A stretch of DNA of 24,000 nt from Candidatus Woesearchaeota archaeon (GTDB taxonomy: Archaea > Nanobdellota > Nanobdellia > Pacearchaeales > GW2011-AR1): NCBI GenBank assembly GCA_964468255.1, contig CAYXTB010000004.1, forward strand, positions 1 to 24,000. The letters run 5' to 3'. The notes beneath the pieces were generated by a model. The model was not told the DNA's origin and made no database searches. It saw nothing but the letters and a program-made list of their open reading frames with translations. How positions within the stretch are numbered: position 1 is the first letter of the stretch; every line of letters begins with the position of its first letter. Below, piece after piece: positions 5,913-22,194 of the stretch. The translations under genes and the position numbers were made by a program.

Positions 5913-6461
5913 ATGGCAGAGAAATATTTGAATATAGATTTGAATGACGAGAGAACTGGTAAAATTGCAGAAGTATTGGCAAATAAGACTGCCAAGAGAA
6001 TCTTATTACAGCTTGCTGATAAAGAGATGAGCGTAAGTGAAATAGCTCAAGAATTAAAAATTCCTTTGAATACTGCTGATTATAATATCAAGAATTTAAT
6101 AAATACGGGACTAATTGAGAGGTCAAAGAATTTCTTTTGGAGCATAAAAGGAAAGAAAATTCTAACTTATAGAGTATCTAATAAAAAAATAGTTATCTCT
6201 CCAAAAATATCTTTTAGAGGCTTAATTCCTGCTATTTTGATATCTGGTCTTTTAGCTCTTGGAATTAAAATTTATTCTGATTATTCGGGAACAGAGATAA
6301 GGCAGAAAGCATCTGTGCCCGCAGAAGCAGCTTTAAGTGCTGCGCAAACTGGCTATGATGTGCTTGTTAATACTGAAAATGCTTGGCTTTGGTTTTTATC
6401 AGGAGCATTAATTGCTTTGATTATATTTGTATTATGGAATTGGAGGAAGATATGGAAATGA
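5913..6461 (+). CDS. ArsR-family winged-HTH regulator fused to a C-terminal two-TM membrane anchor
   Basis: RTGKIAEVLANKTAKRILLQLADKEMSVSEIAQELKIPLNTADYNIKNLINTGLIE is an ArsR/SmtB-type HTH. The C-terminus carries two hydrophobic helices (IPAILISGLLALGI, WLWFLSGALIALIIFVLW). Confidence 0.65.
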   Translation: MAEKYLNIDLNDERTGKIAEVLANKTAKRILLQLADKEMSVSEIAQELKIPLNTADYNIKNLINTGLIERSKNFFWSIKGKKILTYRVSNKKIVISPKISFRGLIPAILISGLLALGIKIYSDYSGTEIRQKASVPAEAALSAAQTGYDVLVNTENAWLWFLSGALIALIIFVLWNWRKIWK

Positions 6462-7281: not shown

Positions 7282-7289
7282 TTTAAATA
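7282..7289 (+). promoter_or_regulatory. TATA box (TTTAAATA) for the DHH gene
   Basis: The box starts 29 nt upstream of ATG 7311. Confidence 0.55.
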
Positions 7290-7310: not shown

Positions 7311-8393
7311 ATGCTGACAGAAAAGCAAATTCGTGAAATAAGGGAGCATCTTGAAAGGGCGCAGAATCCAGTGTTTTTTTATGACAATGACTGCGATGGA
7401 TTATGCAGTTTTCTTTTGCTCAGGAGGCTTATTGGAAGAGGAAAAGGAGTTGCAGTAAAGAGTTATCCTGACTTGAACGCAGAATATGCTAAGAAGGCAT
7501 CCGAGTTAAAAGCAGATTATGTTTTTATCTTGGACAAGCCAGTTATATCTCCTGCTTTTCTCGAAGAGATAGACAAAATGCAGCTGCCAGTTGTATGGAT
7601 TGACCATCACGCAATTTCTTCAAATAATAAGGAATTTGAAATTGATGAAAAAAAACACAAAAATCTACAGGCGTATAACCCTGCAAGAAATAAGGGAAAA
7701 GAAGAAAGCTTTGAGCCCGTGACTTACCTTGCTTACAAAATTAGCGAGAGGAAAGAGGATATTTGGATTGCAATAATGGGCTGCATAGCAGATCATTTTA
7801 TACCTGATTTTGCATTTGAATTCCAGAAGCACTACCCTGAATTCTGGACAAAAGAAAAAATAAAAGAACCATTTGACGCCTATTACAGAACCGAGATAGG
7901 CAGGATTGCGCAGGCCATAAGTTTCGGATTGAAAGATTCTATCAGCCACGTCGTAAAATTGCAGAACTTTTTAATTAATTGCAACTCTCCAAATGAGATT
8001 TTTTTGGAGCTCGAAGGGAATAAAGAGTTTAGGGAAAAATACTCTGAAATAAGAAAAAAATATGACTTTTTGCTTGAAAAGGCAAAGGAAAGCACAAAAG
8101 AAAAACTAATATTTTTTGATTATTCTGGTGATTTAAGCATAAGCGCTGAGATTGCAAATGAGTTGTCTTACAAACACCATGACAAATACATCGCTGTCGC
8201 TTATAAAAAAGGCGTCATAACAAATATATCCCTGCGGGGGGAAAAAATAAGAAGAATTTTAGAAAAGATTTTAAAGCGGTTTGAGAATGCAAACGGGGGA
8301 GGGCACGAAAACGCCGCCGGGGCAAGAATCAGGACAGAAGATTTGGTTAAATTTAAGGAGGCATTAGAAAATGAAATCAATTCAAGGCAATAG
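7311..8393 (+). CDS. DHH/DHHA1-family phosphoesterase (NrnA/RecJ-like)
   Basis: The DHH motifs appear in order: FFYDNDCDGLCS, VFILDKP, VWIDHHA, CIADHF. The DHHA1 motif GGGHENAAGARI lies near the C-terminus. Confidence 0.75.
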   Translation: MLTEKQIREIREHLERAQNPVFFYDNDCDGLCSFLLLRRLIGRGKGVAVKSYPDLNAEYAKKASELKADYVFILDKPVISPAFLEEIDKMQLPVVWIDHHAISSNNKEFEIDEKKHKNLQAYNPARNKGKEESFEPVTYLAYKISERKEDIWIAIMGCIADHFIPDFAFEFQKHYPEFWTKEKIKEPFDAYYRTEIGRIAQAISFGLKDSISHVVKLQNFLINCNSPNEIFLELEGNKEFREKYSEIRKKYDFLLEKAKESTKEKLIFFDYSGDLSISAEIANELSYKHHDKYIAVAYKKGVITNISLRGEKIRRILEKILKRFENANGGGHENAAGARIRTEDLVKFKEALENEINSRQ

Positions 8394-9486
8394 AAGTGAA
8401 TTAAGACAGAAGGAAAACAGAGAAATCAGCGGGCTGGATGAGCTTAGCGAGGCTGAAATAGAAGTTTATGGAAGAGTGCAGGGAGTTAATTTCAGGAATA
8501 CAATAAAAGGAAAAGCCCAAGATATGGGATTGAAAGGTTATGTCAGGAATCTTGAAAATGGCTATGTATTGATAGTTTCCCAAGGAGAAAAAAATAAGAT
8601 TCAAGAGCTTATAGCATGGGCGAAATCAAGCCCTGGTTTTTCAAGCGTAGATTCTGTGCAGTGCCAGTGGAAAAAAGCAAAGGTAAAATACCAGGGGTTT
8701 GAAATAATGGGGGAAAGCAGCCTGCTGGTTGACCAGGCAAAAAGCTTTCTCAATTTAGGGAAGAGGCTGGTTGAAAACAAGCAGAAAATACCAAGGCACG
8801 TTTCTATAATTCCTGATGGAAACAGGAGATGGGCCTGGGAGAAAGGATTGCATGCAAGCTATGGGCATTATACTGCTGGGAGCTACGAGCATATTTTTGA
8901 ATTATTCCACGAAGCTATGAATATGGGGGTAAAATATTTCTCTTTGTGGGGGTTTTCCACTGAAAATTGGAATAGGAGCGATGAGGAGATTAAAGCAATT
9001 TTTGATTTGATTTTGAATGGAATGGACAAGATGCGGGAAGAGTTTCACAAGCACAGCATAAGATTTAGGCACATAGGCAGGAGAGACAGGCTGCCTAAAA
9101 ATTTGGTAAAAGAACTGGAAAAATTAGAAGACGAAACTTCTGACTACAGAGATTTTAATGTGCAGTTATGCCTAGATTATGGGGGGAGGGATGAAATAGT
9201 GAGAGCAGTAAATAAGATGCTAAAATCTGGAATAAAGGAAATAAATGAAGAGACGTTTAAGAGCTACCTTGACACAGCAGATATTCCTGACCCTGATTTA
9301 ATAATAAGGACTTCGGGAGAAAAGCGCACTAGTGGCATTATGCCTTTTCAGGCTGCTTACGCAGAACTTCATTTCTGCGATGTTTATTTTCCTGAATTTG
9401 ACGCTTTTGAATTGAGAAAGGCAATCAAGAGCTTTGGAAAAAGGATAAGAAGGTTCGGTGGGACTGCGAAGGAAGATTTGAAGTGA
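8371..9486 (+). CDS. uppS: acylphosphatase-domain / cis-prenyltransferase (undecaprenyl-diphosphate synthase family) fusion protein
   Basis: aa ~28-112 match both acylphosphatase signatures as I recall them (VYGRVQGVNFR; GYVRNLENGYVLIVSQG). aa ~138-371 carry UppS motifs (HVSIIPDGNRRWA, FSLWGFSTENWNRS, LCLDYGGRDEIV, DLIIRTSGEKRTSG...AYAELHF). GGAGG at 8356-8360 precedes the ATG, and the gene overlaps the DHH gene by 23 nt. Confidence 0.8.
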   Translation: MKSIQGNRSELRQKENREISGLDELSEAEIEVYGRVQGVNFRNTIKGKAQDMGLKGYVRNLENGYVLIVSQGEKNKIQELIAWAKSSPGFSSVDSVQCQWKKAKVKYQGFEIMGESSLLVDQAKSFLNLGKRLVENKQKIPRHVSIIPDGNRRWAWEKGLHASYGHYTAGSYEHIFELFHEAMNMGVKYFSLWGFSTENWNRSDEEIKAIFDLILNGMDKMREEFHKHSIRFRHIGRRDRLPKNLVKELEKLEDETSDYRDFNVQLCLDYGGRDEIVRAVNKMLKSGIKEINEETFKSYLDTADIPDPDLIIRTSGEKRTSGIMPFQAAYAELHFCDVYFPEFDAFELRKAIKSFGKRIRRFGGTAKEDLK

Positions 9487-10684: not shown

Positions 10685-12070
10685 ATGAGGGATATGCAAA
10701 AACAAGAACTCAAAAAGCCGTTGCAGGGCATGATTGGCCTGGAAATACACGTTTATCTTGTTACAAGAGAGAAGCTGTTTTGCAGATGTGCGGCGCACAG
10801 GGAGCGGGGGACAAGATCGAACACATTCGTGTGCCCGATATGCACGGGGCAGCCAGGAGCAAAGCCGATGCTGCCGAATAAAAGCGCTGTTGAAAAGGCT
10901 GTGCAGATTGGACTTATGCTTGAATGCCAGATTAATTCTGATTTGAAATGGCAGAGAAAGCATTATAATTGGCCTGATTTGCCTAAAGGATACCAAAATA
11001 CTTTATCTGGAGCAAAAGCAGTTCCTGTTGGAGAAAGAGGAAAGTTTTATGGAATAAGAATAAGAAGTATGCATTTGGAGGAGGATCCTGCTTCATGGAA
11101 CCCTGAAACAGGAGAAATTGATTATAATAGGTCTGGATTGCCTTTAGCTGAGATAATAACTGAGCCGGATTTTTCTACTGCAGAAGAAGTTGTTGAATGG
11201 CTGCAGAAATTATTATTAAATTTGAGTTATTTAAAAGCAGTTGATTCTAATGCTGGAATTAAAGTTGATGTTAACGTTAATATAATGGGAAAAACAGAAA
11301 GGGTAGAAATAAAAAATATAAGCTCTCTTGAATCAATTAAAAGCGCAATTGAATATGATTTGCAGAGACAAGTAAAAGAAGGAGGAAAGCAAAAAGAAAC
11401 AAGAAGGTGGAATGATTTAAAGGGAAAAACAGAAATAATGAGAGCAAAGGAAGAGCAGGATGATTATAGATTTATTTCTGATCCTGATTTGCAAGAGATT
11501 ATTATTAAAAAAGAATTTGTTCATGTACAGAAAAAGAAGATTCCTGAAAGTCCTGAGGAAAAATTAGATAAATTAATTAAAAAGTACAAAATTAATAAGA
11601 AAAATGCCGGGATTTTGGCAAGCAACATTGATTTAGTCGAATTTTTTGAGAAAGTGGCTAATAAGATAGACGCCAAATTTGCTCTTTCTTGGGTGTCAAT
11701 AGAGCTTTTGAGATTTTTGAATTATAACAGAATAATGCTGGATAAAATTGATATTAAAGCAGAGCATTTTGTTGCTTTGCTGAAACTGGTAAAAGAAGGA
11801 AAAATTACGCCTTTGAAAGCTAAAGAGATTCTGAACAAGTTTTATCCGAGGAGCTTCATGCCTTCTGCTTCTGAAGGCAAGATTTCTGATGTAGGGCAAT
11901 TGAAGAAAGTGATAGAAAAAGTTATTGCTGAAAACAAGAAAGCTGTTGAAGATTACAAAAAAGGAGAGAAGAACGCTTTTAATTATTTGATGGGCAAGGT
12001 TATGTCTGCTACTGGAAAAAGAGCTGATTTTAAGATTGCAAGGCAGCTACTGCAAAAGTTATTGAAATGA
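10685..12070 (+). CDS. gatB: aspartyl/glutamyl-tRNA amidotransferase subunit B
   Basis: GLEIHVYL...KLFCRC...VCPICTGQPGAKPMLN, HLEEDPAS, GLPLAEIITEPD, ETRRWN...MRAKEEQDDYRFISDPDL, and a C-terminal YqeY-like tail (NYLMGKVM). At 461 aa the length is GatB-typical. Confidence 0.88.
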   Translation: MRDMQKQELKKPLQGMIGLEIHVYLVTREKLFCRCAAHRERGTRSNTFVCPICTGQPGAKPMLPNKSAVEKAVQIGLMLECQINSDLKWQRKHYNWPDLPKGYQNTLSGAKAVPVGERGKFYGIRIRSMHLEEDPASWNPETGEIDYNRSGLPLAEIITEPDFSTAEEVVEWLQKLLLNLSYLKAVDSNAGIKVDVNVNIMGKTERVEIKNISSLESIKSAIEYDLQRQVKEGGKQKETRRWNDLKGKTEIMRAKEEQDDYRFISDPDLQEIIIKKEFVHVQKKKIPESPEEKLDKLIKKYKINKKNAGILASNIDLVEFFEKVANKIDAKFALSWVSIELLRFLNYNRIMLDKIDIKAEHFVALLKLVKEGKITPLKAKEILNKFYPRSFMPSASEGKISDVGQLKKVIEKVIAENKKAVEDYKKGEKNAFNYLMGKVMSATGKRADFKIARQLLQKLLK

Positions 12071-13790: not shown

Positions 13791-15266
13791 ATGCTCAAGA
13801 AGGAAGAAGCCGCAGATAACAAAGGCTTGACAGCCAAGAAAAATCTTGATTTTTCTGAATGGTATACACAGCTTGTTCAGAAGGCAGAGCTTGCAGACTT
13901 AAGATATAATGTAAAAGGTTTTCTTGTATTTCAGCCTTGGTCTGTTTTGGCGATGGAGAAAATGTACAAAATTTTTGAATCTGTTCTTCAAAGGAAAGGA
14001 CACAAACCTTATTGGTATCCAACACTTATACCCGAGAGCAATTTGAAGAAAGAAGTAGAGCATGTCAAAGGATTTATACCTGAAGTATTTTGGGTGACCG
14101 AGGCGGGGGATGAAAAACTTACAGAGAGACTTGCTCTAAGGCCGACTTCAGAGACTGCTTTCTATCAGATGTTTTCATTATGGATAAGAAGCTATAATGA
14201 TTTGCCCTTTAAGACATACCAGAGAGCAAATGTGTTTAGGTATGAGACAAAAGCAACGAGACCATTTTTGAGAAGCAGGGAGTTTCATTGGATTGAGACG
14301 CATTGTGCCTTTGCCAGAGAAGAAGATGCCATGAAACAAGTACATGACGACATGGCAACAACTGAGGAAGTTTTACACGGCATCTTTGGTTTGCCCCTTA
14401 TATTTTTTGAGAGGCCTAGTTGGGATAGATTTCCAGGAGCGCATAGGACTTTTGCTGCAGATGTTTTGAATCCTGATGGAAGAGTTGTGCAACAGCCTTC
14501 TACACATTTACTTTCTCAAGCATTTGCAAAAGCTTTTGATGTTAAATTCAAAGACAGAGACGGAAAGGATAAATACACTTGGATTACTTGTTATGGTCCT
14601 GCCATTTCTAGAATATTTGCAAGTATAGTTATTGTTCATGGTGATGATAAAGGATTAAGATTTCCTTTTGAAATAGCGCCTTTGCAGATTGCAATTGTTC
14701 CAATTAGTGATGATGTAAAAATAGCCGAAAAAGCAATTAATATCACAAGTAAAATAAAAACTAAGACCGGCTTTTCTGTTGAAGCTGATTTCAGCCAAAA
14801 AAGCGCTGGAGAAAAATTCAATTATTGGGAAATGAAGGGGGTTCCTATCAGAATCGATATAGGATTAAAAGATATTAAGGAAAAAAGCGTCACTGTTTTT
14901 AGAAGAGATACTAATGAGAAGAAAACTATAAGAGAGGAGAATCTTTTAGATTACATTAATAAAATCTCTGAAGAATTCACAAAGAATTTGATTAAACAGG
15001 CTGATAAGATATTTGATGACAGAGTAAAACACGCCGAGGGCATTAAAACTATTAAAAAAATAGTTGATAAAGGTGGAATTGCCCGGTGTGGTTTTTGTTC
15101 TATTGATAAAGAGGGAGAGAAATGTGCTGAAAAGATAGAAAAAGAAGTTGGGGCGAAAGTTCGAGGAAGAAAATTTGATGAAATAAACAAAATGAAAGCA
15201 TTTGGAAAGTGTATTGGATGCGGGAAAGAGGCGAAAGAAATAGTTTATATCGCAAGGGAGTATTGA
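13791..15266 (+). CDS. proS: prolyl-tRNA synthetase (archaeal/eukaryotic type)
   Basis: Class II motifs are present (LALRPTSETAFY, FRYETKATRPFLRSREFHWIE, GPAISRIF). There is an anticodon-binding domain and a C-terminal Cys-rich domain ending in ...IAREY. Confidence 0.9.
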   Translation: MLKKEEAADNKGLTAKKNLDFSEWYTQLVQKAELADLRYNVKGFLVFQPWSVLAMEKMYKIFESVLQRKGHKPYWYPTLIPESNLKKEVEHVKGFIPEVFWVTEAGDEKLTERLALRPTSETAFYQMFSLWIRSYNDLPFKTYQRANVFRYETKATRPFLRSREFHWIETHCAFAREEDAMKQVHDDMATTEEVLHGIFGLPLIFFERPSWDRFPGAHRTFAADVLNPDGRVVQQPSTHLLSQAFAKAFDVKFKDRDGKDKYTWITCYGPAISRIFASIVIVHGDDKGLRFPFEIAPLQIAIVPISDDVKIAEKAINITSKIKTKTGFSVEADFSQKSAGEKFNYWEMKGVPIRIDIGLKDIKEKSVTVFRRDTNEKKTIREENLLDYINKISEEFTKNLIKQADKIFDDRVKHAEGIKTIKKIVDKGGIARCGFCSIDKEGEKCAEKIEKEVGAKVRGRKFDEINKMKAFGKCIGCGKEAKEIVYIAREY

Positions 15267-15267
15267 C

Positions 15268-16545
15268 ATGGCAGCATTGAACTTTTCACCTGGGGATTAT
15301 GTCCGCTTGCGGTTAGCATTGAAGGAGATAGAAGGCAGGGTTTTGGAAAGTCCTGACAATAGCATTTTACTTTTAAAGCTAAGGTCAGGATATAACATAG
15401 GAATTCCTAGGGAAAATATTCTTGCTGGGAGGGCTTTGCGCAAATACAAGGAAGAGAAGAAAGAGATAAAAGAAATTCCTTTAGTGAAGGGAAAGGGAAA
15501 TATAGGGCTTGTTATTACAGGAGGAACTATTGCTTCTAAGCTTGATGCAAGGACAGGAGCTGTCAAGCCTTTGACTGATGTTAGTGAGTTTGCCAAGTTT
15601 TATCCAGAGCTGTTTGAGATGGTGAATGTTAAGAGGATTGAAGTTCCTTTCATGATTGCTTCTGAAAGCATGGATAGCTCGCACTGGATTAAAATAGCTG
15701 AAAAAGTCAAAGAGATGTTAGATGATTCAAGCATAGAAGGAGTTGTCGTGACTCATGGCACTGATACTTTGGGATATACAAGCGCTGCCCTTTCATTTTT
15801 TCTTCGCAATTTGAATAAGCCAGTAGTATTAACATATTCGCAGAGGAGCATTGATCGTGCATCGAGTGATGCTAATTTGAATTTGCAGTGCGCTGCCCTC
15901 TTTGCTTTGAGCGATTGCGCTGAAGTGGTTCTTGTTGGGCATGGAAGCATTAATGACGATTTTTGCTATGCTCTTAGAGGAACTAAAGTCAGGAAAATGC
16001 ATTCTTCAAGGAGAGATGCTTTCAAGGCAGTTAACGCAGAGCCTATTGCTAAGATTTGGCCAGACAGAGTTGAATTTTTGTCTGAGCATAGGCCGAGAAA
16101 TAATGATAAAGTTGAATTAGACACAGAATTTACAGACAAAGTTGCTCTTGTTAAATTTTATCCTGGGCAGACTCCAGATATTTTAGATTTTTATGCTCTG
16201 AAGCATAAAGGAATTGTGCTTGAAGTTTTAGGTCTTGGGCATGTTGCGTCATCTGATTCATTACAGAGCTGGGTTCCTGCGTTGAAGAAACATATTAGGA
16301 ATGGATTGATAGTTTGCGCTGCTGCGCAGACGATTTATGGAAGGCTTGACCCCTTGGTTTATAGCAATGGGCGGGAATTGTTGGATGCTGGAGTTATATT
16401 TTTGGAAGATATGCTAAGCGAGACAGCACTTGTCAAATTGGGCTTTGTGCTTGGGCATTATGGCTGGAAGAAAAATGTGAAAGAGAAAATGCTAGAAAAC
16501 ATGGAAGGCGAGATTAATGAAAGGCTAGGAACAGAATTTATTTAA
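15268..16545 (+). CDS. gatD: glutamyl-tRNA(Gln) amidotransferase subunit D
   Basis: Asparaginase-type motifs are present (VITGGTIASKLD, VVTHGTDTLGYT), preceded by the GatD-specific N-terminal domain. The ATG lies 1 nt after the proS stop, so the two are coupled. Confidence 0.9.
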   Translation: MAALNFSPGDYVRLRLALKEIEGRVLESPDNSILLLKLRSGYNIGIPRENILAGRALRKYKEEKKEIKEIPLVKGKGNIGLVITGGTIASKLDARTGAVKPLTDVSEFAKFYPELFEMVNVKRIEVPFMIASESMDSSHWIKIAEKVKEMLDDSSIEGVVVTHGTDTLGYTSAALSFFLRNLNKPVVLTYSQRSIDRASSDANLNLQCAALFALSDCAEVVLVGHGSINDDFCYALRGTKVRKMHSSRRDAFKAVNAEPIAKIWPDRVEFLSEHRPRNNDKVELDTEFTDKVALVKFYPGQTPDILDFYALKHKGIVLEVLGLGHVASSDSLQSWVPALKKHIRNGLIVCAAAQTIYGRLDPLVYSNGRELLDAGVIFLEDMLSETALVKLGFVLGHYGWKKNVKEKMLENMEGEINERLGTEFI

Positions 16546-16623
16546 TCTTATAGATTTTTCTTTCACTCTTGCAAAAACGCCGTCTGCACCCGTGCTAAAA
16601 TTTGTTAATTCAAGGATTTTCAT
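16525..16623 (-). CDS. candidate leaderless 32-aa ORF (MKILELTNFSTGADGVFARVKEKSIRLNKFCS), or simply an antisense transcript start
   Basis: It is absent from the ORF track because it is too short. A minus-strand TATA (TTTATAAT, 16645-16652) begins exactly 29 nt upstream of ATG 16623. The 3' 21 nt overlap the gatD stop region. Confidence 0.25.
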   Translation of the reverse strand: MKILELTNFSTGADGVFARVKEKSIRLNKFCS

Positions 16624-16681
16624 ATATTTTTTAGAAAAGAGAAGATTATAAAGTATGGCTTTTCGGAACGAGGAGAATTTA

Positions 16682-16704
16682 TTGTAACTATTTAAGAGTT
16701 ACAA
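16682..16704. promoter_or_regulatory. inverted repeat TTGTAAC-N9-GTTACAA between divergent promoters
   Basis: The 7-bp perfect arms are at 16682-16688 and 16698-16704. They end 10 bp upstream of the TATA box of the NTase gene. Confidence 0.4.
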
Positions 16705-16713
16705 GTAGAAAGG

Positions 16714-16721
16714 TTTAAATA
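16714..16721 (+). promoter_or_regulatory. BRE/TATA (gaaAGGTTTAAATAc) for the NTase/kinase-like cassette
   Basis: The TATA starts 29 nt upstream of ATG 16743. The same AAGGTTTAAATAC 13-mer recurs at 22286-22298 and 22558-22570. Confidence 0.6.
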
Positions 16722-16742
16722 CCTTCAAAGAGAATAAATTTT

Positions 16743-17354
16743 ATGAAAATAGATTTAAGTTTAGTTAAGTATTTAGAAGATAATAGTCAGTTAGAGAGAT
16801 TTATGGGAGAATATGAAGAATTGCATGAAAGAGACGAAGAAGGCAAAGCTTATGCAAATACGATCGGTGGATGCTTAGGCATTGCTCATGACTTAAACAG
16901 AAAAAAAGTGCCCTATTGTATTATAGGCGGTTTAGCGGTTGCTTTTCATTTACATCAAGTCAATCATGCTGCATTTTTGCAATGGAGGGGAACTAGCGAT
17001 ATAGATATTTTAGCAGATAAGAAATCAGCTGAAAGGACATTGAGAGAATTTGGCTACGATTTTAGAGAAGCTCAATATGGTAAAGCTGGGGCAAAATCCG
17101 GTATTTATGTATATGCTAAAGATGATAATGGTGAATCTTTATCTCTCGGACTAAGACAAAAAGTAGAGGATAAAACAGGAAGAAATATTGCGCCTAAATT
17201 ACTTGGAAGTGCGACTGTTGTAGATGTTTATAGCATTCCAATAAGAGTTCCCATGATTAGAGATTTAGTTGCAATGAAACTCCATGCGAATAGAACAAAA
17301 GATAGGGAAGATATTAAAAGACTAAGAGAATACTATAAAGGTCTTAAACTTTAA
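16743..17354 (+). CDS. minimal nucleotidyltransferase-fold protein (AbiEii/MNT-like)
   Basis: IIGGLAVAFHL...RGTSDIDIL gives the GG...DxD pol-beta NTase signature (GG at aa 62-63, D86/D88). The C-terminal RDLVAMKLHANRTKDREDIKRL helix is typical of these NTases. Confidence 0.6.
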   Translation: MKIDLSLVKYLEDNSQLERFMGEYEELHERDEEGKAYANTIGGCLGIAHDLNRKKVPYCIIGGLAVAFHLHQVNHAAFLQWRGTSDIDILADKKSAERTLREFGYDFREAQYGKAGAKSGIYVYAKDDNGESLSLGLRQKVEDKTGRNIAPKLLGSATVVDVYSIPIRVPMIRDLVAMKLHANRTKDREDIKRLREYYKGLKL

Positions 17355-17366
17355 TATCGTATTATA

Positions 17367-18194
17367 ATGGCACTAGAAATAAAAGTGACAAGTCATAGAA
17401 TTGGTGGAAATCCTGGGGGAAAATGTGTTGTTCGCGATGCCAAGACTGAATCTCTTGGGTATTTCAAGTTTTGCTATGGCTCTAGAATAGAAGGGTATAG
17501 TCCTTTTGTGGCGGCTAATCAACCGGTTTATGAGGCAATAACTTTTGAATTAGCGCGTAGATTGGGTCTTAAAACGCCAAGTACTTTTGTTTTGTTGAAT
17601 GATCAGAAAGATGTTAGGTTTACTAACTGGAAAGAGTTCGCAAACACTCAACAGGCGCATGACCCATCTGGAAGAAGATTTTATTTTGTCTCAAAATTAA
17701 TTCCTCATCCTATAGTTCCAGATGTCGAGACCAAAAGCAGGAGTCTCTTAGAAATGCAAAAGCCATATTTGGAGAGCCTTTTGATTTCGGATATTATAAA
17801 CATAAAACAGAATTTTGCATTTTATAATAATGGAGCTGTTGGAGAGGTTAAATATATTGATCTTGGATGTAGTTTTGTACATGCAAAAGAAGGTTTCCTT
17901 CAACAGCCAAACAGACTTAGAATTATGGATTTTAACGCAGTTAGACCAATGTCAAAGAATCTTAGAAGACATACAATTATCTCTGCCGATAACGATTTTT
18001 TTATTAATACAGAAGAGTTTGTTATATCTATTCATGATATGTGTGTTCCAACTTTAAACCCCCTTGGTAGTATGAGAACTAAAGATTTGATTTCTGTTGA
18101 AGAAATAAAACATATTGTGTATTATGTTATGCAAGGTTTTACTGATAGTCTTAAAAGCTATGAGCAGAAAGGATTACTTTTGAAATCTGCTTAA
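17367..18194 (+). CDS. protein-kinase-like fold protein (HipA / PI3-4-kinase-like), possibly catalytically divergent
   Basis: The elements, in kinase order, are the Gly-rich loop RIGGNPGGK, the YEAITFELARRLGLKTP helix (as in HipA-type kinases), SDIINIKQNF and YIDLGCSF (DFG-equivalent). No canonical catalytic-loop Asp motif is evident. The fold call is from pattern only. Confidence 0.4.
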   Translation: MALEIKVTSHRIGGNPGGKCVVRDAKTESLGYFKFCYGSRIEGYSPFVAANQPVYEAITFELARRLGLKTPSTFVLLNDQKDVRFTNWKEFANTQQAHDPSGRRFYFVSKLIPHPIVPDVETKSRSLLEMQKPYLESLLISDIINIKQNFAFYNNGAVGEVKYIDLGCSFVHAKEGFLQQPNRLRIMDFNAVRPMSKNLRRHTIISADNDFFINTEEFVISIHDMCVPTLNPLGSMRTKDLISVEEIKHIVYYVMQGFTDSLKSYEQKGLLLKSA

Positions 18195-18195
18195 T

Positions 18196-18203
18196 TTTAA
18201 ATA
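18196..18203 (+). promoter_or_regulatory. TATA box (TTTAAATA) for gatE
   Basis: The box starts 29 nt upstream of ATG 18225 and 2 nt after the stop of the kinase-like gene. Confidence 0.55.
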
Positions 18204-18224
18204 ATCTGTTTTTCTATAAGTTTC

Positions 18225-19673
18225 ATGCAAATTGACTATGAAAAGCTGGGATTTAAGGCCGGGCTGGAAATACATCAGCAGCTTGACACTGGCAAGCTGT
18301 TTTGCAAATGCCCTGCTTTTTTGCAGAGCAAAGGGCCTGATTTTATTGTAAAGAGAAGATTGCATAGAGTTGCAGGAGAGACAGGAGAGGTTGACGTAGC
18401 TGCTGAGTACGAGTCTTCCCTTGGCAGGGAATTTATCTATCAAGGATACAGGGATAGTAATTGCTTGGTTGAATTGGACGAATCTCCACCTGATATGATA
18501 AATTCTGATGCATTAGAAGAGGCAATTAAAATTGCTCTTCTTTTGAATTGTGAAATTTATCCTGCTGTTCAGATAATGAGGAAGACTGTTATTGACGGTT
18601 CTAATACAAGTGGTTTTCAAAGAACTGTTCTTATCGGGCATTCAGGATTTATCGAGACGAGCTTTGGGAAAGTGCCTGTTGAATCAGTTGCATTAGAAGA
18701 AGACTCTGCGCGGATAATAAGCAAGGATGAGAAAATTAGTGTTTATAGGTTGGATAGATTGGGAATTCCTCTTGTTGAAATTGGTACAGAGCCTGTAATG
18801 AAAAGAGCAGAGCAAGTAAAAGAGGCTGCTCTGAAAATAGGGGAAATATTAAGAGCGTGCAAAGTGAAAAGAGGTATTGGAACAATAAGGCAAGATATTA
18901 ACATGAGTATAAAGGGGCATGAAAGAGTTGAAATAAAAGGTTTTCAAGAACCTTCTTTAATGGCTTTGACAATCAACAAAGAAATTGAAAGGCAGCAAAA
19001 AGAAATAAAAGAAGGAAGAGGGAAGAAGGGAGAGGTTAGAAATGCTTTGGAAAATGGCGAGACGGAATTTTTGAGGCCTCTTCCTGGAGGGGCAAGAATG
19101 TATCCTGAGACTGACTTGCCTTTATTAAGAATTGGCAGAGAAAAGATAAATGAGATAAAGAAAAAACTGCCTAAGTTAAGGCACGAGATAAGAGATGAGC
19201 TGAAAAAGAAAGGCTTGAGCGATGAACTGATAAATTTGGTTTTAGATGGTCACCTAGATGAGTTTGAAACTTTATTACAGGTTTATCCTATTGATGCTCC
19301 TCTGGTTGCTAAATTGGTAACTTTGTGGCGTCAAGAAACAGCTACTAAATTAAAAAAATCTTTCTATGAGATTGCTAAGGTTATAGATGAGAGGACTTTA
19401 GAGCATTTGTTAGAATTGGTTAAGGAAGGTAAATTGGAGAAGGGACAATTAAAAGGTGTTTTTAGTGATTTGATGATGGATATTTTGTTAGAAGATGCTG
19501 TTAAAAAAGAAAAAGTTGATGATAACAAGCTTGAAGCGGAAATTAGGGATATTGTTAAGAAAAAGCCGGGATTGACGGTAAATGCTTATATGGGCATGAT
19601 AATCCAAAAGCTTGGAAAGGAAATTGACAAAAGAAAAACAATGGAAATTCTTAGCAAGATAATTGGCAAGTAA
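18225..19673 (+). CDS. gatE: glutamyl-tRNA(Gln) amidotransferase subunit E (short form)
   Basis: GFKAGLEIHQQLDTGKLFCKCP, RRLHRVAGETGEVDVAA, NCLVELDESPP and LRPLPGGARMYPETDLP are GatE-specific blocks, and there is a YqeY-like tail. It is only 482 aa (see findings). Confidence 0.85.
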   Translation: MQIDYEKLGFKAGLEIHQQLDTGKLFCKCPAFLQSKGPDFIVKRRLHRVAGETGEVDVAAEYESSLGREFIYQGYRDSNCLVELDESPPDMINSDALEEAIKIALLLNCEIYPAVQIMRKTVIDGSNTSGFQRTVLIGHSGFIETSFGKVPVESVALEEDSARIISKDEKISVYRLDRLGIPLVEIGTEPVMKRAEQVKEAALKIGEILRACKVKRGIGTIRQDINMSIKGHERVEIKGFQEPSLMALTINKEIERQQKEIKEGRGKKGEVRNALENGETEFLRPLPGGARMYPETDLPLLRIGREKINEIKKKLPKLRHEIRDELKKKGLSDELINLVLDGHLDEFETLLQVYPIDAPLVAKLVTLWRQETATKLKKSFYEIAKVIDERTLEHLLELVKEGKLEKGQLKGVFSDLMMDILLEDAVKKEKVDDNKLEAEIRDIVKKKPGLTVNAYMGMIIQKLGKEIDKRKTMEILSKIIGK

Positions 19674-19690
19674 TTTATCTTAGATAAAGG

Positions 19691-19698
19691 TTTTTAAA
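19691..19698 (+). promoter_or_regulatory. BRE/TATA (aaaGGTTTTTAAA)
   Basis: The TATA starts 29 nt upstream of ATG 19720. Confidence 0.5.
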
Positions 19699-19719
19699 CC
19701 GACATTTTGAGTTAAATAT

Positions 19720-20010
19720 ATGAATAAGACGGTTATTGCAGGTATTGTTATATTTATTGTGCTTGCCTTTCTGTTAGGGTTTTTTGTAAATGGTATAGCA
19801 TTTACAGGAAGTGTCGTAAAGGTTGAAGAATTTAGAAGCCAATATAGTTATACAAAGGCAATTTGTAATAGTGAAAAGAAGTGTATTGATGTTTTGATAG
19901 AGTGCGAGAATGGCGAGATAAAGAAAATAGAGCCAGTTTCTGATTTAACTTCTTTTAGTGATGATTGGGAAGATCCTAGAGATAATCCTAATGAGGAATT
20001 GTGTTTTTAA
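19720..20010 (+). CDS. small signal-anchored extracellular protein with 4 Cys (unknown function)
   Basis: There is an N-terminal TM (VIAGIVIFIVLAFLLGFFV), followed by CNSEKKCIDVLIECENG...ELCF. Confidence 0.5.
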   Translation: MNKTVIAGIVIFIVLAFLLGFFVNGIAFTGSVVKVEEFRSQYSYTKAICNSEKKCIDVLIECENGEIKKIEPVSDLTSFSDDWEDPRDNPNEELCF

Positions 20011-20037
20011 TTTATATAAAATCTAAAATGAGAAAGA

Positions 20038-20045
20038 ATTAAAAA
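20038..20045 (+). promoter_or_regulatory. TATA box (ATTAAAAA) for the HIT gene
   Basis: The box starts 29 nt upstream of ATG 20067, which favours that start over GTG 20055 or ATG 20064. Confidence 0.45.
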
Positions 20046-20066
20046 CTTGAAAATGTGGGTTATATG

Positions 20067-20534
20067 ATGGCTCAAATAAGTCCCAGTGATTGCATATTTT
20101 GTAGAATTGCAAGAGGAGAAGCTCTTGCACATAAAATATGGGAAGATGACAAGCATATTGCTTTTCTTTCTATATTCCCTAATACGTGGGGGTTTTCTGT
20201 TATAGCGACAAAGAAGCATTATTCAAGCTATGCTTTTGATGTTCCTGATGATGTTTTAAAAGATTTTATTATTGCGTGCAAGAAAGTTGGTAAGCTATTG
20301 GATTTAAAATTGGAAGATGTTGGAAGGACAGGATTAATATTTGAAGGATTTGGAGTTGATCATTTACATGCCAAGCTATTCCCGATGCATGGAACGAAAG
20401 GAGATTGGACTCCTAAAAAGTCAAGTGTCAATAAGTATTATGAGAAATATGAAGGCTATATTTCCTCGCATGATTTTGAGAGAGCCAATGATGAAATATT
20501 GGCTGACTTGGCAAGGCATATAAGAGAGAGATAA
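20067..20534 (+). CDS. HIT-family nucleotide hydrolase/transferase (variant triad)
   Basis: The N-terminal CIFCRIARGE...IWEDDKHIAFLSIFP is HIT-typical. The triad region reads GVDHLHAKLFP, i.e. H-x-H-x-K rather than H-x-H-x-H. Confidence 0.7.
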   Translation: MAQISPSDCIFCRIARGEALAHKIWEDDKHIAFLSIFPNTWGFSVIATKKHYSSYAFDVPDDVLKDFIIACKKVGKLLDLKLEDVGRTGLIFEGFGVDHLHAKLFPMHGTKGDWTPKKSSVNKYYEKYEGYISSHDFERANDEILADLARHIRER

Positions 20535-20539
20535 AAAGG

Positions 20540-20547
20540 ATTAAAAA
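20540..20547 (+). promoter_or_regulatory. TATA box (ATTAAAAA) for aspS
   Basis: aaaGGATTAAAAATAC starts 29 nt upstream of ATG 20569. Confidence 0.55.
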
Positions 20548-20568
20548 TACTCCTTTTCTAAGAGAAGT

Positions 20569-21873
20569 ATGGTAGACTTGCAGAAGCTGAATAAGGAAAG
20601 AATTTATATAAATTCTTTAACAGCCAAGGATCATGGAAAGAAGGCTGTTGTGGCTGGCTGGCTTTACGACCAAAGGGATTTGGGAAAAATTAGATTTGTT
20701 CTTTTGAGGGATATTACAGGAGAGATACAGGTTACTGCATTTAAAGGAGAAACGAAAGATGCAGTTTTTAAATTAATGGCTAAAGCTTCTAGAGAAAGTG
20801 TCATTGTCGTTTCTGGAAAAGTTGTTAAGAATGCGAAGGCTCCGGGAGGAAGGGAGATTGTTCCTGAGAGCTTTGAAGTTTTGGCAGAAGCAGAGCAGTC
20901 ACTACCAATCGATGTTTCTGATTTTTCAAAGACAGAATTGCCTAAGAGGTTGGATTATAGGTTTTTGGATTTGCATAGGAGGAGGACGCAGGCGATTTTT
21001 AAGATACAGAGTACGATCGCAGGTGCTTTTAGAGAGCATTTTTACAACGAAGGATTTATAGAGATGCAGCCTCCGTGCATTATTTCTGCTGCAAGCGAGG
21101 GAGGAACAGAGCTTTTTCCTGTACAATATTTTGAGAAAAAAGCGTATTTAGCACAGAGTCCGCAGTTATATAAACAGATGCTTGCCTGTAGCATGGAAAA
21201 GACGTTCATGATTACTCCTATATGGAGGGCGGAAAAACATAATACTTCAAGGCATATTAATGAGATAAGGCAGATGGACATTGAAGCTGCTTTTGAAAAC
21301 CAGACGACTATAATGAAGCATTTGGAAGATGTTGTTAGGTATATTGTAAAAAGAGTTATTGAGAAATGCAAAAGTGAGCTGGAACTGCTTGGCGTTAAAC
21401 TTAAAGTCCCTGGAGCTGTTTATTTGAGCTACGAGGAAGCTATAAAGAAAGTTAGAGGCAGGATGGGGGATGATTTTACGCCAGAGCAGGAAAAGAAGCT
21501 TTGTGAAATGTATAAAGGAGATATTGTATTTACGCATTCTTGGCCCCAGACTTTAAAGCCATTTTATATTATGCCTAAGGATGGAAAGAAAGATGCTAAA
21601 TTAAGCGAAGGTTTCGATGCTTTGTATGGAGGTGTTGAAATCTGTTCTGGAGGGCAGAGAATCCATATTCCTTCTTTATTGATAGAGAGATTGAAGGCAA
21701 AAGGATTAAACCCTAAGAACTTTGAGGCGTATATAGATAGTTTTAGGTATGGCGCACCCATGCATAGCGGTTGGTCAATAGGCTTGGAAAGGATGACTAT
21801 GGTACTTTGCGGGTTGGATAACATTAAGGAAGCAACAATGTTTCCAAGAGACAGAGATAGACTGACCCCATAA
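20569..21873 (+). CDS. aspS: aspartyl-tRNA synthetase (archaeal type)
   Basis: There is an N-terminal OB fold (VAGWLYDQRDLGKIRFVLLRD). The class II motifs are QSPQLYKQ, PIWRAEKHNTSRHINEIRQMDIE, EICSGGQR and GWSIGLERMTM. Confidence 0.9.
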   Translation: MVDLQKLNKERIYINSLTAKDHGKKAVVAGWLYDQRDLGKIRFVLLRDITGEIQVTAFKGETKDAVFKLMAKASRESVIVVSGKVVKNAKAPGGREIVPESFEVLAEAEQSLPIDVSDFSKTELPKRLDYRFLDLHRRRTQAIFKIQSTIAGAFREHFYNEGFIEMQPPCIISAASEGGTELFPVQYFEKKAYLAQSPQLYKQMLACSMEKTFMITPIWRAEKHNTSRHINEIRQMDIEAAFENQTTIMKHLEDVVRYIVKRVIEKCKSELELLGVKLKVPGAVYLSYEEAIKKVRGRMGDDFTPEQEKKLCEMYKGDIVFTHSWPQTLKPFYIMPKDGKKDAKLSEGFDALYGGVEICSGGQRIHIPSLLIERLKAKGLNPKNFEAYIDSFRYGAPMHSGWSIGLERMTMVLCGLDNIKEATMFPRDRDRLTP

Positions 21874-21908: not shown

Positions 21909-22106
21909 TTAAAGACCTTTTTCCTTTCTTTGTGACTCTATTTGCGTTAGCCTTCTTTTCGCTTCTTCTGGCTCTTTCCTGAACAAGTTTAGCAGTTCGA
22001 GCATTTTAATAATTACTTCTTCGTACGTCTCTTTTCTGAATACCTTTAGATTGTCCAATCTCGCCTTAGTTTTTTTTGTCAGCTTTATAGTTGTTATATC
22101 TTCCAT
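21909..22106 (-). CDS. ribbon-helix-helix (CopG / putative-antitoxin-like) small protein, 65 aa
   Basis: MEDITTIKLTKKTKARLDNLKVFRKETYEEVIIKMLELL has the beta-strand/helix/helix pattern of archaeal RHH 'putative antitoxin' proteins. ATG 22106 is preferred to the track's TTG 22145, whose extension would run through a perfect palindrome. Confidence 0.55.
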   Translation of the reverse strand: MEDITTIKLTKKTKARLDNLKVFRKETYEEVIIKMLELLNLFRKEPEEAKRRLTQIESQRKEKGL

Positions 22107-22117
22107 AAGACAACTCG

Positions 22118-22137
22118 TAAGGAACCAAGGTTCCTTA
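22118..22137. promoter_or_regulatory. perfect inverted repeat TAAGGAACC-AA-GGTTCCTTA just upstream of the RHH gene
   Basis: The 9-bp arms lie 12-31 nt upstream of minus-strand ATG 22106. This is a candidate autoregulatory operator, or a 5' hairpin. Confidence 0.45.
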
Positions 22138-22194
22138 ACGTTCAATCTCCTTTAACGTGTTCAGCCTTTCTTTCATTATTTTGAGGTATATTTT

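Follow-up and report, generated by a model that had tools for sequence, protein, structure and literature searches.

What are a predicted nucleotidyltransferase (NTase) and a kinase-like protein doing between gatD and gatE? The question is raised by a 24,000-nucleotide (nt) stretch of DNA from a Candidatus Woesearchaeota archaeon (contig CAYXTB010000004.1, positions 1 to 24,000; hereafter the window), in which two adjacent open reading frames (ORFs), ORF1 and ORF2, separate the two gat genes. A reading made from the letters alone (the sequence-only reading) had proposed a toxin–antitoxin (TA) or defence cassette wedged into gatDE. Analysis of related loci leads us to a different answer: ORF1–ORF2 can be regarded, with good confidence, as the local cargo of an inherited slot and not as a mobile cassette. 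The slot is a conserved, separately promoted unit 5′ of gatE in Pacearchaeota/Woesearchaeota-type DPANN archaea. Most genomes carry only ORF2 there and others only an ORF1-type NTase; both genes are present here, and occasionally the cargo is another transferase. The features of the locus (aa, amino acids; BRE, transcription factor B recognition element; AspRS, aspartyl-tRNA synthetase) are as follows.

15268–16545, + strand: gatD (Pfam GatD_N, Asparaginase, Asparaginase_C), the flank 5′ of the slot
16683–16703, strand not assigned: palindromic operator-like element TGTAAC-N9-GTTACA, sequence TGTAACTATTTAAGAGTTACA
16708–16721, + strand: BRE/TATA promoter of the ORF1–ORF2 unit (GAAAGG plus TTTAAATA)
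16743–17354, + strand: ORF1, 203 aa, pol-beta-superfamily NTase
17367–18194, + strand: ORF2, 275 aa, minimal protein-kinase-like (HipA-resembling) protein
18196–18203, + strand: TATA box of gatE itself, in the 30-nt spacer 3′ of ORF2
18225–19673, + strand: gatE, short form, 482 aa, lacking the AspRS/GAD-like insertion domain; the flank 3′ of the slot

ORF1 and ORF2 are on the same strand, 12 nt apart. The ORF coordinates, the peptide motifs and the two TATA boxes of the sequence-only reading were all borne out, the motifs coinciding with invariant columns of the two protein families.

The palindrome TGTAAC-N9-GTTACA has a single match in the window, where it is followed by GAAAGG-TTTAAATA. The related loci, 691 kb in all, contain 24 sites with no more than one mismatch, and every one of the 24 lies 5′ of the first gene of the gatE-proximal slot; a rough estimate puts the number expected by chance at about one or two. 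Where the start was called, the palindrome stands 18–43 nt (typically ∼40) 5′ of the ATG of the first slot gene; in three loci the ORF caller had set the start upstream of the palindrome or overlooked the gene, and there the placement was judged by eye. In related loci, too, the palindrome is followed by GAAAGGTTTAWAA. The genes behind it are ORF2 (12 loci, including L024, where gatE is not the neighbour), ORF1-type NTases, a small NTase, a 360-aa protein that precedes ORF2 in L001, a protein resembling aminoglycoside phosphotransferases (APH-like) and a phosphoribosyltransferase (PRTase)-domain protein. In L022, where the unit is turned round, the palindrome falls between divergent ORF2 and gatE. 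We found no account of this palindrome in the literature.

The less usual cargo behind the operator comprises, before gatE, a 270-aa APH-like kinase-fold protein (L053, 4157–4969), a 372-aa PRTase-domain protein (L054, 3852–4970) and a metallophosphoesterase that follows an NTase (L052, 4338–4943), and, before ORF2, the 360-aa protein of L001 (3204–4286), of no assigned family.

Transcription of the slot can be read from the promoters. The element TTTAAATA occurs at 16714–16721 and at 18196–18203, in each case exactly 29 nt 5′ of the ATG it serves (ORF1 and gatE); a third copy, at 7282–7289, is likewise 29 nt 5′ of an ATG, at 7311. This shared geometry at three long ORFs suggests that leaderless transcription is the local rule, and the ORF1–ORF2 transcript is probably leaderless. 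The 12-nt gap between ORF1 and ORF2 contains no element of this type, and since ORF2 thus has no promoter of its own it is presumably co-transcribed from that of ORF1. In nearly all loci gatE retains its own TATA box in a short spacer, with a AATTTTAATAA element in the ORF2–gatE spacer of relatives. The pair in the window therefore sits in a conserved, separately regulated slot, the promoter of which drives ORF2 directly in most relatives.

Local candidates for a factor acting at the palindrome are weak and recur in few loci. One is an HTH_20/ArsR-type (helix-turn-helix) regulator with a C-terminal membrane anchor, encoded a few kb 5′ of gatD beside a SIMPL protein (window, 5913–6461; L043, 1187–1747; L068, 1–181); that it binds the palindrome is speculative. 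The other is a small DUF7557 protein resembling ribbon-helix-helix regulators, encoded 3′ of aspS on the opposite strand (window, 21909–22145, − strand; L046, 4710–4922; L055, 7496–7693). In L001 a DUF7557-like gene stands beside a PIN-domain gene, and may encode a VapB-like antitoxin or an orphan regulator.

The distribution of the two genes was determined in 67 related loci that had been selected via ORF2, via ORF1 or via GatE (the last with no bias to either ORF) and annotated with hidden Markov models (HMMs). ORF2 adjoins gatE in 26 of 41 informative loci (42 distinct ORF2 loci in all), down to 30% identity: in 24 of these gatE is immediately 3′ on the same strand, in L068 one small gene intervenes, and in L022 ORF2 is divergent from gatE. 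The order gatD–ORF2–gatE is contiguous in L013, L017, L019, L031 and L033. When loci are compared pair by pair, the identity of ORF2 correlates with that of the neighbouring GatE (r = 0.55, Mantel 0/2000) and with that of GatD (r = 0.75), the latter value being comparable to that for GatD against GatE (0.76). The correlated identities of ORF2, GatD and GatE thus indicate vertical co-inheritance.

A subgroup of ORF2 that lacks gatE as a neighbour adjoins tuf–rps10 in five loci (L024–26, L030 and L065). The subgroup as a whole (L024, L025, L026, L030 and L065–67) shows 30–35% identity and is found, in one orientation or the other, beside genes for EF-1alpha and ribosomal protein S10; the start of the L030 homologue is overlapped by 4 nt by an ORF1-like NTase.

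An iterated HMM unites the ORF1-type NTases of 13 loci. In seven (L004, L043, L044, L046, L055, L057 and L064) the NTase is directly 5′ of gatE and ORF2 is absent; in four it is 5′ of ORF2 (the window, L063, L030 and, as a borderline case, L029); in L052 it precedes a phosphoesterase and then gatE, and in L045 it is found at another site. The closest relative is L063, which has the same 12-nt NTase–ORF2 junction and in which the NTase is 87% and ORF2 90% identical to those of the window. In L029 and L030 ORF2 is paired with distant ORF1-type NTases. ORF2 is also tightly joined to an unrelated, minimal pol-beta NTase of 134–135 aa (L020, 7589–7993; L068, 5830–6237), the two copies of which are 47% identical: it is 5′ of ORF2 and overlapping in L020, and 3′ with a 1-nt gap in L068, that is, in opposite gene orders. 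The pairing noticed in the sequence-only reading is thus real in one respect: about five independent lineages have an NTase–ORF2 pair, the NTase coming from either of two unrelated families and lying on either side of ORF2. As the unit of the locus, however, the pair does not hold up, for each gene is found far more often alone beside gatE, and most copies of both ORF2 and ORF1-type NTases stand alone.

ORF2 has no match in Pfam, NCBIfam or PADLOC, and its family returned nothing recurrent in NCBIfam. The AlphaFold2 (AF2) model is confident (predicted local distance difference test (pLDDT) score 93, predicted template modelling (TM) score 0.92), and the top 50 Foldseek matches in the Protein Data Bank (PDB) and BFVD are nearly all kinases, among them DAPK, Bud32, CtkA, CotH, Rio1 and PI4K II-alpha; in the model the C-terminal third is alpha/beta. 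The predicted fold is protein-kinase-like but divergent. Sixteen columns are invariant among 55 homologues, and they occur in canonical kinase order: a Gly-rich loop (G13, N15–G18), K34 closing a strand, E56 in the next helix, then, after a long helix, the predicted catalytic pair D142...N149, and finally D165-x-G167 with the predicted Mg-binding Asp. The Lys-to-Glu spacing of 22 and the Asp-to-Asp spacing of 23 are both the values of E. coli HipA. The catalytic loop reads D-x6-N against D-x4-N in HipA, and the activation loop could not be recognised. The kinase-like, HipA-resembling fold proposed from the sequence alone was thus upheld by the model, the Foldseek kinases, the HipA spacings and the weak matches given below; the accompanying remark that ORF2 lacks an obvious catalytic-loop Asp was mistaken, in that D142 and N149 lie within the very segment that it quoted (SDIINIKQNF) and are invariant in all 55 homologues.

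Matches to HipA families are faint. HipA_2 (PF20613) is the sole recurrent Pfam match (5 of 55 members, best E 0.013) and the HipA_C model does not match the family at all; a profile search of the PDB reached Legionella HipT(Lp)/HipA_C chains at E 0.27, in the alphaC-like helix only. An hhalign comparison of the family with E. coli HipA alone was set aside: it returned just the alphaC-like helix (22 residues; ORF2 EAITFELARRLGL against HipA EYYCLLLAKELGL) with a probability of 2.9. An exhaustive HMM search of 1.84 billion representative proteins gave a family of 148 clusters and reached no other kinase; full-length members are single-domain proteins of roughly 250–330 aa. All ORF2 loci from the scan of species-representative genomes are labelled DPANN, or are unclassified or probably misassigned archaeal metagenome-assembled genomes. 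ORF2 is a member of an unannotated orphan family confined to DPANN archaea; we found no source that names it, and no Pfam or NCBIfam model is significant. We consider it likely that ORF2 is an active kinase-fold enzyme, one that probably descends from the small HipA-type kinases and works like them.

ORF1 is marginally above the gathering thresholds of two Pfam families, DUF6036 (24.4 bits against a cut-off of 23.6) and DUF2204 (23.7 against 20.3), and 15 of 16 family members match NTP_transf_5. AbiEii (PF08843) scores 14.4 bits, under its cut-off of 22.5, and is matched by one of the 16 members. For the AF2 model (pLDDT 92) the best Foldseek match in the PDB is the putative NTase TM1012 (2fcl, E 1.8e-5, TM-score 0.68 on the target), with giant-virus poly(A) polymerases and CCA-adding enzymes next; no MenT or AbiEii structure is among the top 50 matches, and a profile search of PDB sequences returned no match. 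Invariant in the family are G62, G63, R82, T84, D86, D88, K179, N183, R184, K186 and D187: a pol-beta motif with an R-x-T-x-D-x-D core, and a Lys/Arg-rich motif III helix. The assignment of ORF1 to the NTases, first made from the letters, is supported by Pfam, by NTP_transf_5 and by TM1012. ORF1 is an NTase of the DUF2204/DUF6036/NTP_transf_5 group, distantly AbiEii-like, and the AbiEii likeness is confined to the motifs. Both ORFs keep complete catalytic signatures, as far as sequence can tell; both are real and probably active enzymes, and for ORF1 we hold NTase activity to be very likely.

Does anything at the locus bespeak mobility or defence? Neither ORF matches any defence model in PADLOC-DB at E ≤ 1, and no relatives of either were found on IMG/VR viral contigs. 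The repeats and att-like sites considered around ORF1–ORF2 were only short matches at chance level. The GC content at the two ORFs is 0.33–0.36, near that of the neighbours and with no step, and the gatD–gatE spacer contains no tRNA (ARAGORN) and no Rfam element. As to partners, 42 ORF2 loci show no conserved HipB-type HTH protein, HipS or equivalent, ORF2 being mostly alone between operator and gatE. The window and the 13 NTase loci contain no gene for AbiEi/COG5340 or another MenA antitoxin, and no HTH, HEPN, HipB/HipS or AbiEi-type partner is present at the slot; the sequence-only reading had already remarked that the window has no HEPN or AbiEi-type HTH partner, and there is none.

How, then, is the locus best explained? 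Taking everything together, we give a probability of roughly 0.5 to the reading of the slot as an accessory unit, regulated and passed on vertically, whose toxin-like enzymes would act on aminoacyl-tRNA supply. A mobile TA or defence pair, inserted between gatD and gatE, in which one enzyme is toxic until the other modifies it covalently, would account for the tight NTase–ORF2 pairs (gaps of −14 to +18 nt) and for the recurrence of the pairing with two unrelated NTase families in both gene orders. Either a MenT-like NTase toxin would be silenced by the kinase or, by type VII logic, a HipA-like kinase toxin would be silenced by an MNT-like NTase; both folds occur in known toxins that block tRNA charging, and ORF1 keeps a Thr two residues before the catalytic Asp, the place of a regulatory phospho-site in MenT toxins (PMC11375011). 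Yet about 36 of the 42 ORF2 loci and 9 of the 13 ORF1-type NTases have no such partner or other antitoxin candidate. ORF2 is inherited vertically and co-diverges with GatD and GatE, the promoter and operator are conserved across the lineage, and there is no PADLOC match, repeat, viral copy, antitoxin signal or departure from the GC of the flanks. Moreover, the presence between gatD and gatE across the lineage, which had been named in advance as speaking against a mobile module, largely holds for ORF2. The precedent invoked for such a pair, the neutralisation of MenT3 through phosphorylation by a kinase partner, is now read differently, as auto-phosphorylation that the antitoxin induces (PMC11375011). 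We regard the TA pair as improbable.

Slightly better placed, but still unlikely, is the view that the gatD–gatE spacer is a permissive recombination hotspot in which ORF1 and ORF2 are unrelated to GatDE and to each other. Spacer length varies between 0 and about 3.5 kb, its genes include those for DUF1003, a secreted protein, an epimerase, a glycosyltransferase, an HD protein, a PRTase and a phosphoesterase, gatE keeps its own promoter, and ORF2 is also found away from gatE; a variable islet does not explain why the same two families repeatedly fill the site just 5′ of gatE across deep divergence, why the same operator precedes slot genes even in L024, away from gatE, or why NTase–ORF2 adjacency outlasts a change of gene order. 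Aminoglycosides are classically inactivated in two ways, by kinase-fold and by pol-beta-fold enzymes, and the alternative cargos (the APH-like protein, with Pfam APH at E 0.04, the PRTase-domain protein and the metallophosphoesterase) would suit a set of interchangeable enzymes that modify a small molecule by O-phosphorylation, O-nucleotidylation or phosphoribosylation, perhaps a natural translation inhibitor, in parallel to the APH/ANT resistance enzymes of the same two folds. Against this, the only recurrent sequence signals of ORF2 are to HipA-type protein kinases, ORF1 resembles AbiEii/DUF2204-type NTases and not ANT/KNTase, and no transporter or biosynthetic genes are linked; of the explanations considered we find this the hardest to credit.

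Several observations also weigh against the accessory-unit reading that we prefer. Fifteen ORF2 loci have no gatE nearby, and in the sample selected via GatE ORF2 precedes gatE in only one of 12 informative loci; the gene just 5′ of gatE is there an ORF1-type NTase in three, gatD in one and another gene in seven. The cargo of the GatE-picked loci is heterogeneous (PRTase-domain, APH-like, phosphoesterase and unknown proteins, with an NTase in three or four). Because gatE and ORF2 mostly have separate promoters, their adjacency need not mean co-regulation. The similarity of ORF2 to HipA families is sub-threshold and its Foldseek TM-scores are low (0.3–0.46), while ORF1 has no significant match to MenT or AbiEii by Pfam, Foldseek or PDB profile. 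Finally, the target is a guess, drawn from relatives and gene neighbourhood only.

The accessory-unit reading would work as follows. The characterised relatives of both folds block tRNA charging, and it is from this, together with the gene neighbourhood, that we infer fixed modifiers of aminoacyl-tRNA supply: toxin-like enzymes would have become fixed as regulated modifiers of the supply chain. The ORF2 kinase would phosphorylate a protein of translation or tRNA charging (GatDE, the non-discriminating glutamyl-tRNA synthetase (GluRS) or EF-1alpha), and the ORF1 NTase would transfer nucleotides to a tRNA 3′ end or to a protein, tRNA(Gln) being among the candidate targets. Where both are present one might modulate the other, phosphorylation of the invariant ORF1 residue T84 being one conceivable route, and a factor binding the operator would decide when the slot enzymes are made. 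Placing the target within tRNA charging or translation is tentative, and is suggested by analogy; a functional interplay of NTase and kinase is possible, at slightly better odds than the target but still short of even.

A bolder version is that DPANN archaea fixed a translational throttle derived from TA toxins, in which an operator-controlled HipA-like kinase and/or MenT-like NTase would switch the indirect Gln-tRNA(Gln) pathway on and off through GatDE, the non-discriminating GluRS or tRNA(Gln), with the kinase controlling the NTase via the active-site Thr where both are present. We think this unlikely as it stands. Were it true, a MenT-type enzyme would for the first time have a bona fide regulator with a kinase fold, and a tRNA-dependent amidotransferase would for the first time have a regulator dedicated to it.

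The GatE of the window is itself unusual. It aligns with GatE of M. thermautotrophicus (2d6f) at E 2e-91, with query residues 264/265 falling at 265/393; the AspRS/GAD-like insertion of canonical GatE, a domain of ∼127 aa, is missing. Relatives at 61–67% identity keep the insertion (L057, 615–2501, 628 aa; L068, 6309–8162, 617 aa, Pfam GAD), and so the domain was lost recently or repeatedly in the lineage of the window. Compensation by ORF1 or ORF2 for the lost domain was considered and rejected, since L068 (with ORF2) and L057 (with the NTase) have full-length GatE. Replacement by ORF2 of the GatE kinase function is unlikely: the cradle domain of GatE aligns at high similarity and its conserved blocks are intact. 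Our literature search found nothing relevant on GatDE in DPANN or on a gatE-associated kinase, and no account of a link between either family and gatE.

Pfam identifies ProRS, GatD, GatE, HIT and AspRS as neighbours, with GatB further upstream. These form a large tRNA-charging cluster (10685–12070 and 13791–21873) in the order gatB, (EamA), proS, gatD, slot, gatE, a small membrane protein, HIT and aspS; in relatives, gatC-like and gatA genes come after it. In relatives, too, the stretch from gatD to the operator is variable (for example L011, 3899–4318; L002, 5536–5934; L055, 1483–3527), with genes for a DUF1003 membrane protein on the opposite strand, a secreted Cys-containing protein of ∼130 aa, an NAD-dependent epimerase and a glycosyltransferase. 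In gene content the window is an ordinary archaeal chromosome, encoding a RadA-like protein, DNA ligase and deoxyhypusine synthase; one ORF (8371–9486) combines an acylphosphatase domain with an undecaprenyl-diphosphate-synthase domain.

The HipA-type kinases and MenT-type NTases described from bacteria are toxins that halt tRNA charging. Here their relatives are found in ultra-small archaea, where both families are inherited vertically, beside genes for tRNA-dependent glutamine formation and behind one conserved operator. If the proposed function is correct, the locus would show how toxin-like enzymes turn into housekeeping regulators in reduced genomes and would offer a first handle on the regulation of the archaeal indirect Gln-tRNA pathway. 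Even if it is wrong, palindrome, variable cargo and gatE make up a clean, testable regulatory unit.

Among known systems, ORF2 is best compared with the small HipA kinases that lack N-subdomain 1 (HipT, HipG/I/J/M; PMC8262856, PMC6581861). Like them it has a kinase-like fold and, as in HipA kinases, a Gly-rich loop near the N terminus, flanked in most family members by a Ser; its helix EAITFELARRLGL resembles HipA EYYCLLLAKELGL, and the K-to-E spacing of 22 and D-to-D spacing of 23 are the same. Known HipA-family kinases inhibit tRNA-charging enzymes: HipA acts on GltX and HipT on TrpS (PMC6581861, PMC8262856). ORF2 differs in size (275 aa against about 290–346 aa), in having no significant sequence match to the HipA families (HipA_C none, HipA_2 at E ≥ 0.013, HipT(Lp) at E 0.27), in its D-x6-N loop and alpha/beta C-terminal third, and in its setting: it has no HipB/HipS neighbour, and is archaeal (DPANN), vertically inherited and mostly monocistronic beside gatE or tuf–rps10.

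With the AbiEii/MenT enzymes (DUF1814; PMC7450476, PMC10435456, PMC11375011) ORF1 shares the pol-beta core G-G...R-x-[ST]-x-D-x-D and the C-terminal K...NR.KD helix. The corresponding residues are T39/D41/K137 in MenT1 and R76/S78/D80/K189 in MenT3 (PMC11375011). A phosphorylated Ser/Thr switches MenT off, and ORF1 has a conserved Thr at that place, a match by motif and not by structural superposition. MenT acts on tRNA 3′ ends (PMC7450476, PMC11541572), and an action at the acceptor end fits the tRNA-charging neighbourhood of ORF1. On the other hand, ORF1 is smaller (203 aa), scores below the AbiEii threshold, lacks an AbiEi/COG5340/MenA antitoxin and has a conserved place 5′ of gatE. Its best sequence and structural matches are the TM1012/DUF2204/DUF6036/NTP_transf_5 NTases, families without known function, from which it is set apart by an extra N-terminal three-helix segment (residues 1–53) and by its specific genomic association.

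Two further systems offer parallels in arrangement. Bud32 of KEOPS (Kae1–Bud32) partners with its machinery, whereas for ORF2 any binding to GatDE would be conjecture; Bud32 and ORF2 share no sequence relationship, and ORF2 is confined to DPANN and missing from many gatE loci. Bud32 is nevertheless a small atypical archaeal kinase-fold protein, encoded beside or fused to a tRNA-modifying enzyme and working within that machinery, and its structure (3en9) is among the best Foldseek matches of ORF2 (probability 0.97). In the MNT–HEPN (type VII) TA systems the partner is a HEPN toxin, whereas the slot has no HEPN and the partner is a kinase-fold protein, and the NTase of the window is of a different, larger type; but just as there a minimal NTase AMPylates its partner toxin, so in L020 and L068 a minimal 135-aa NTase is coupled to ORF2.

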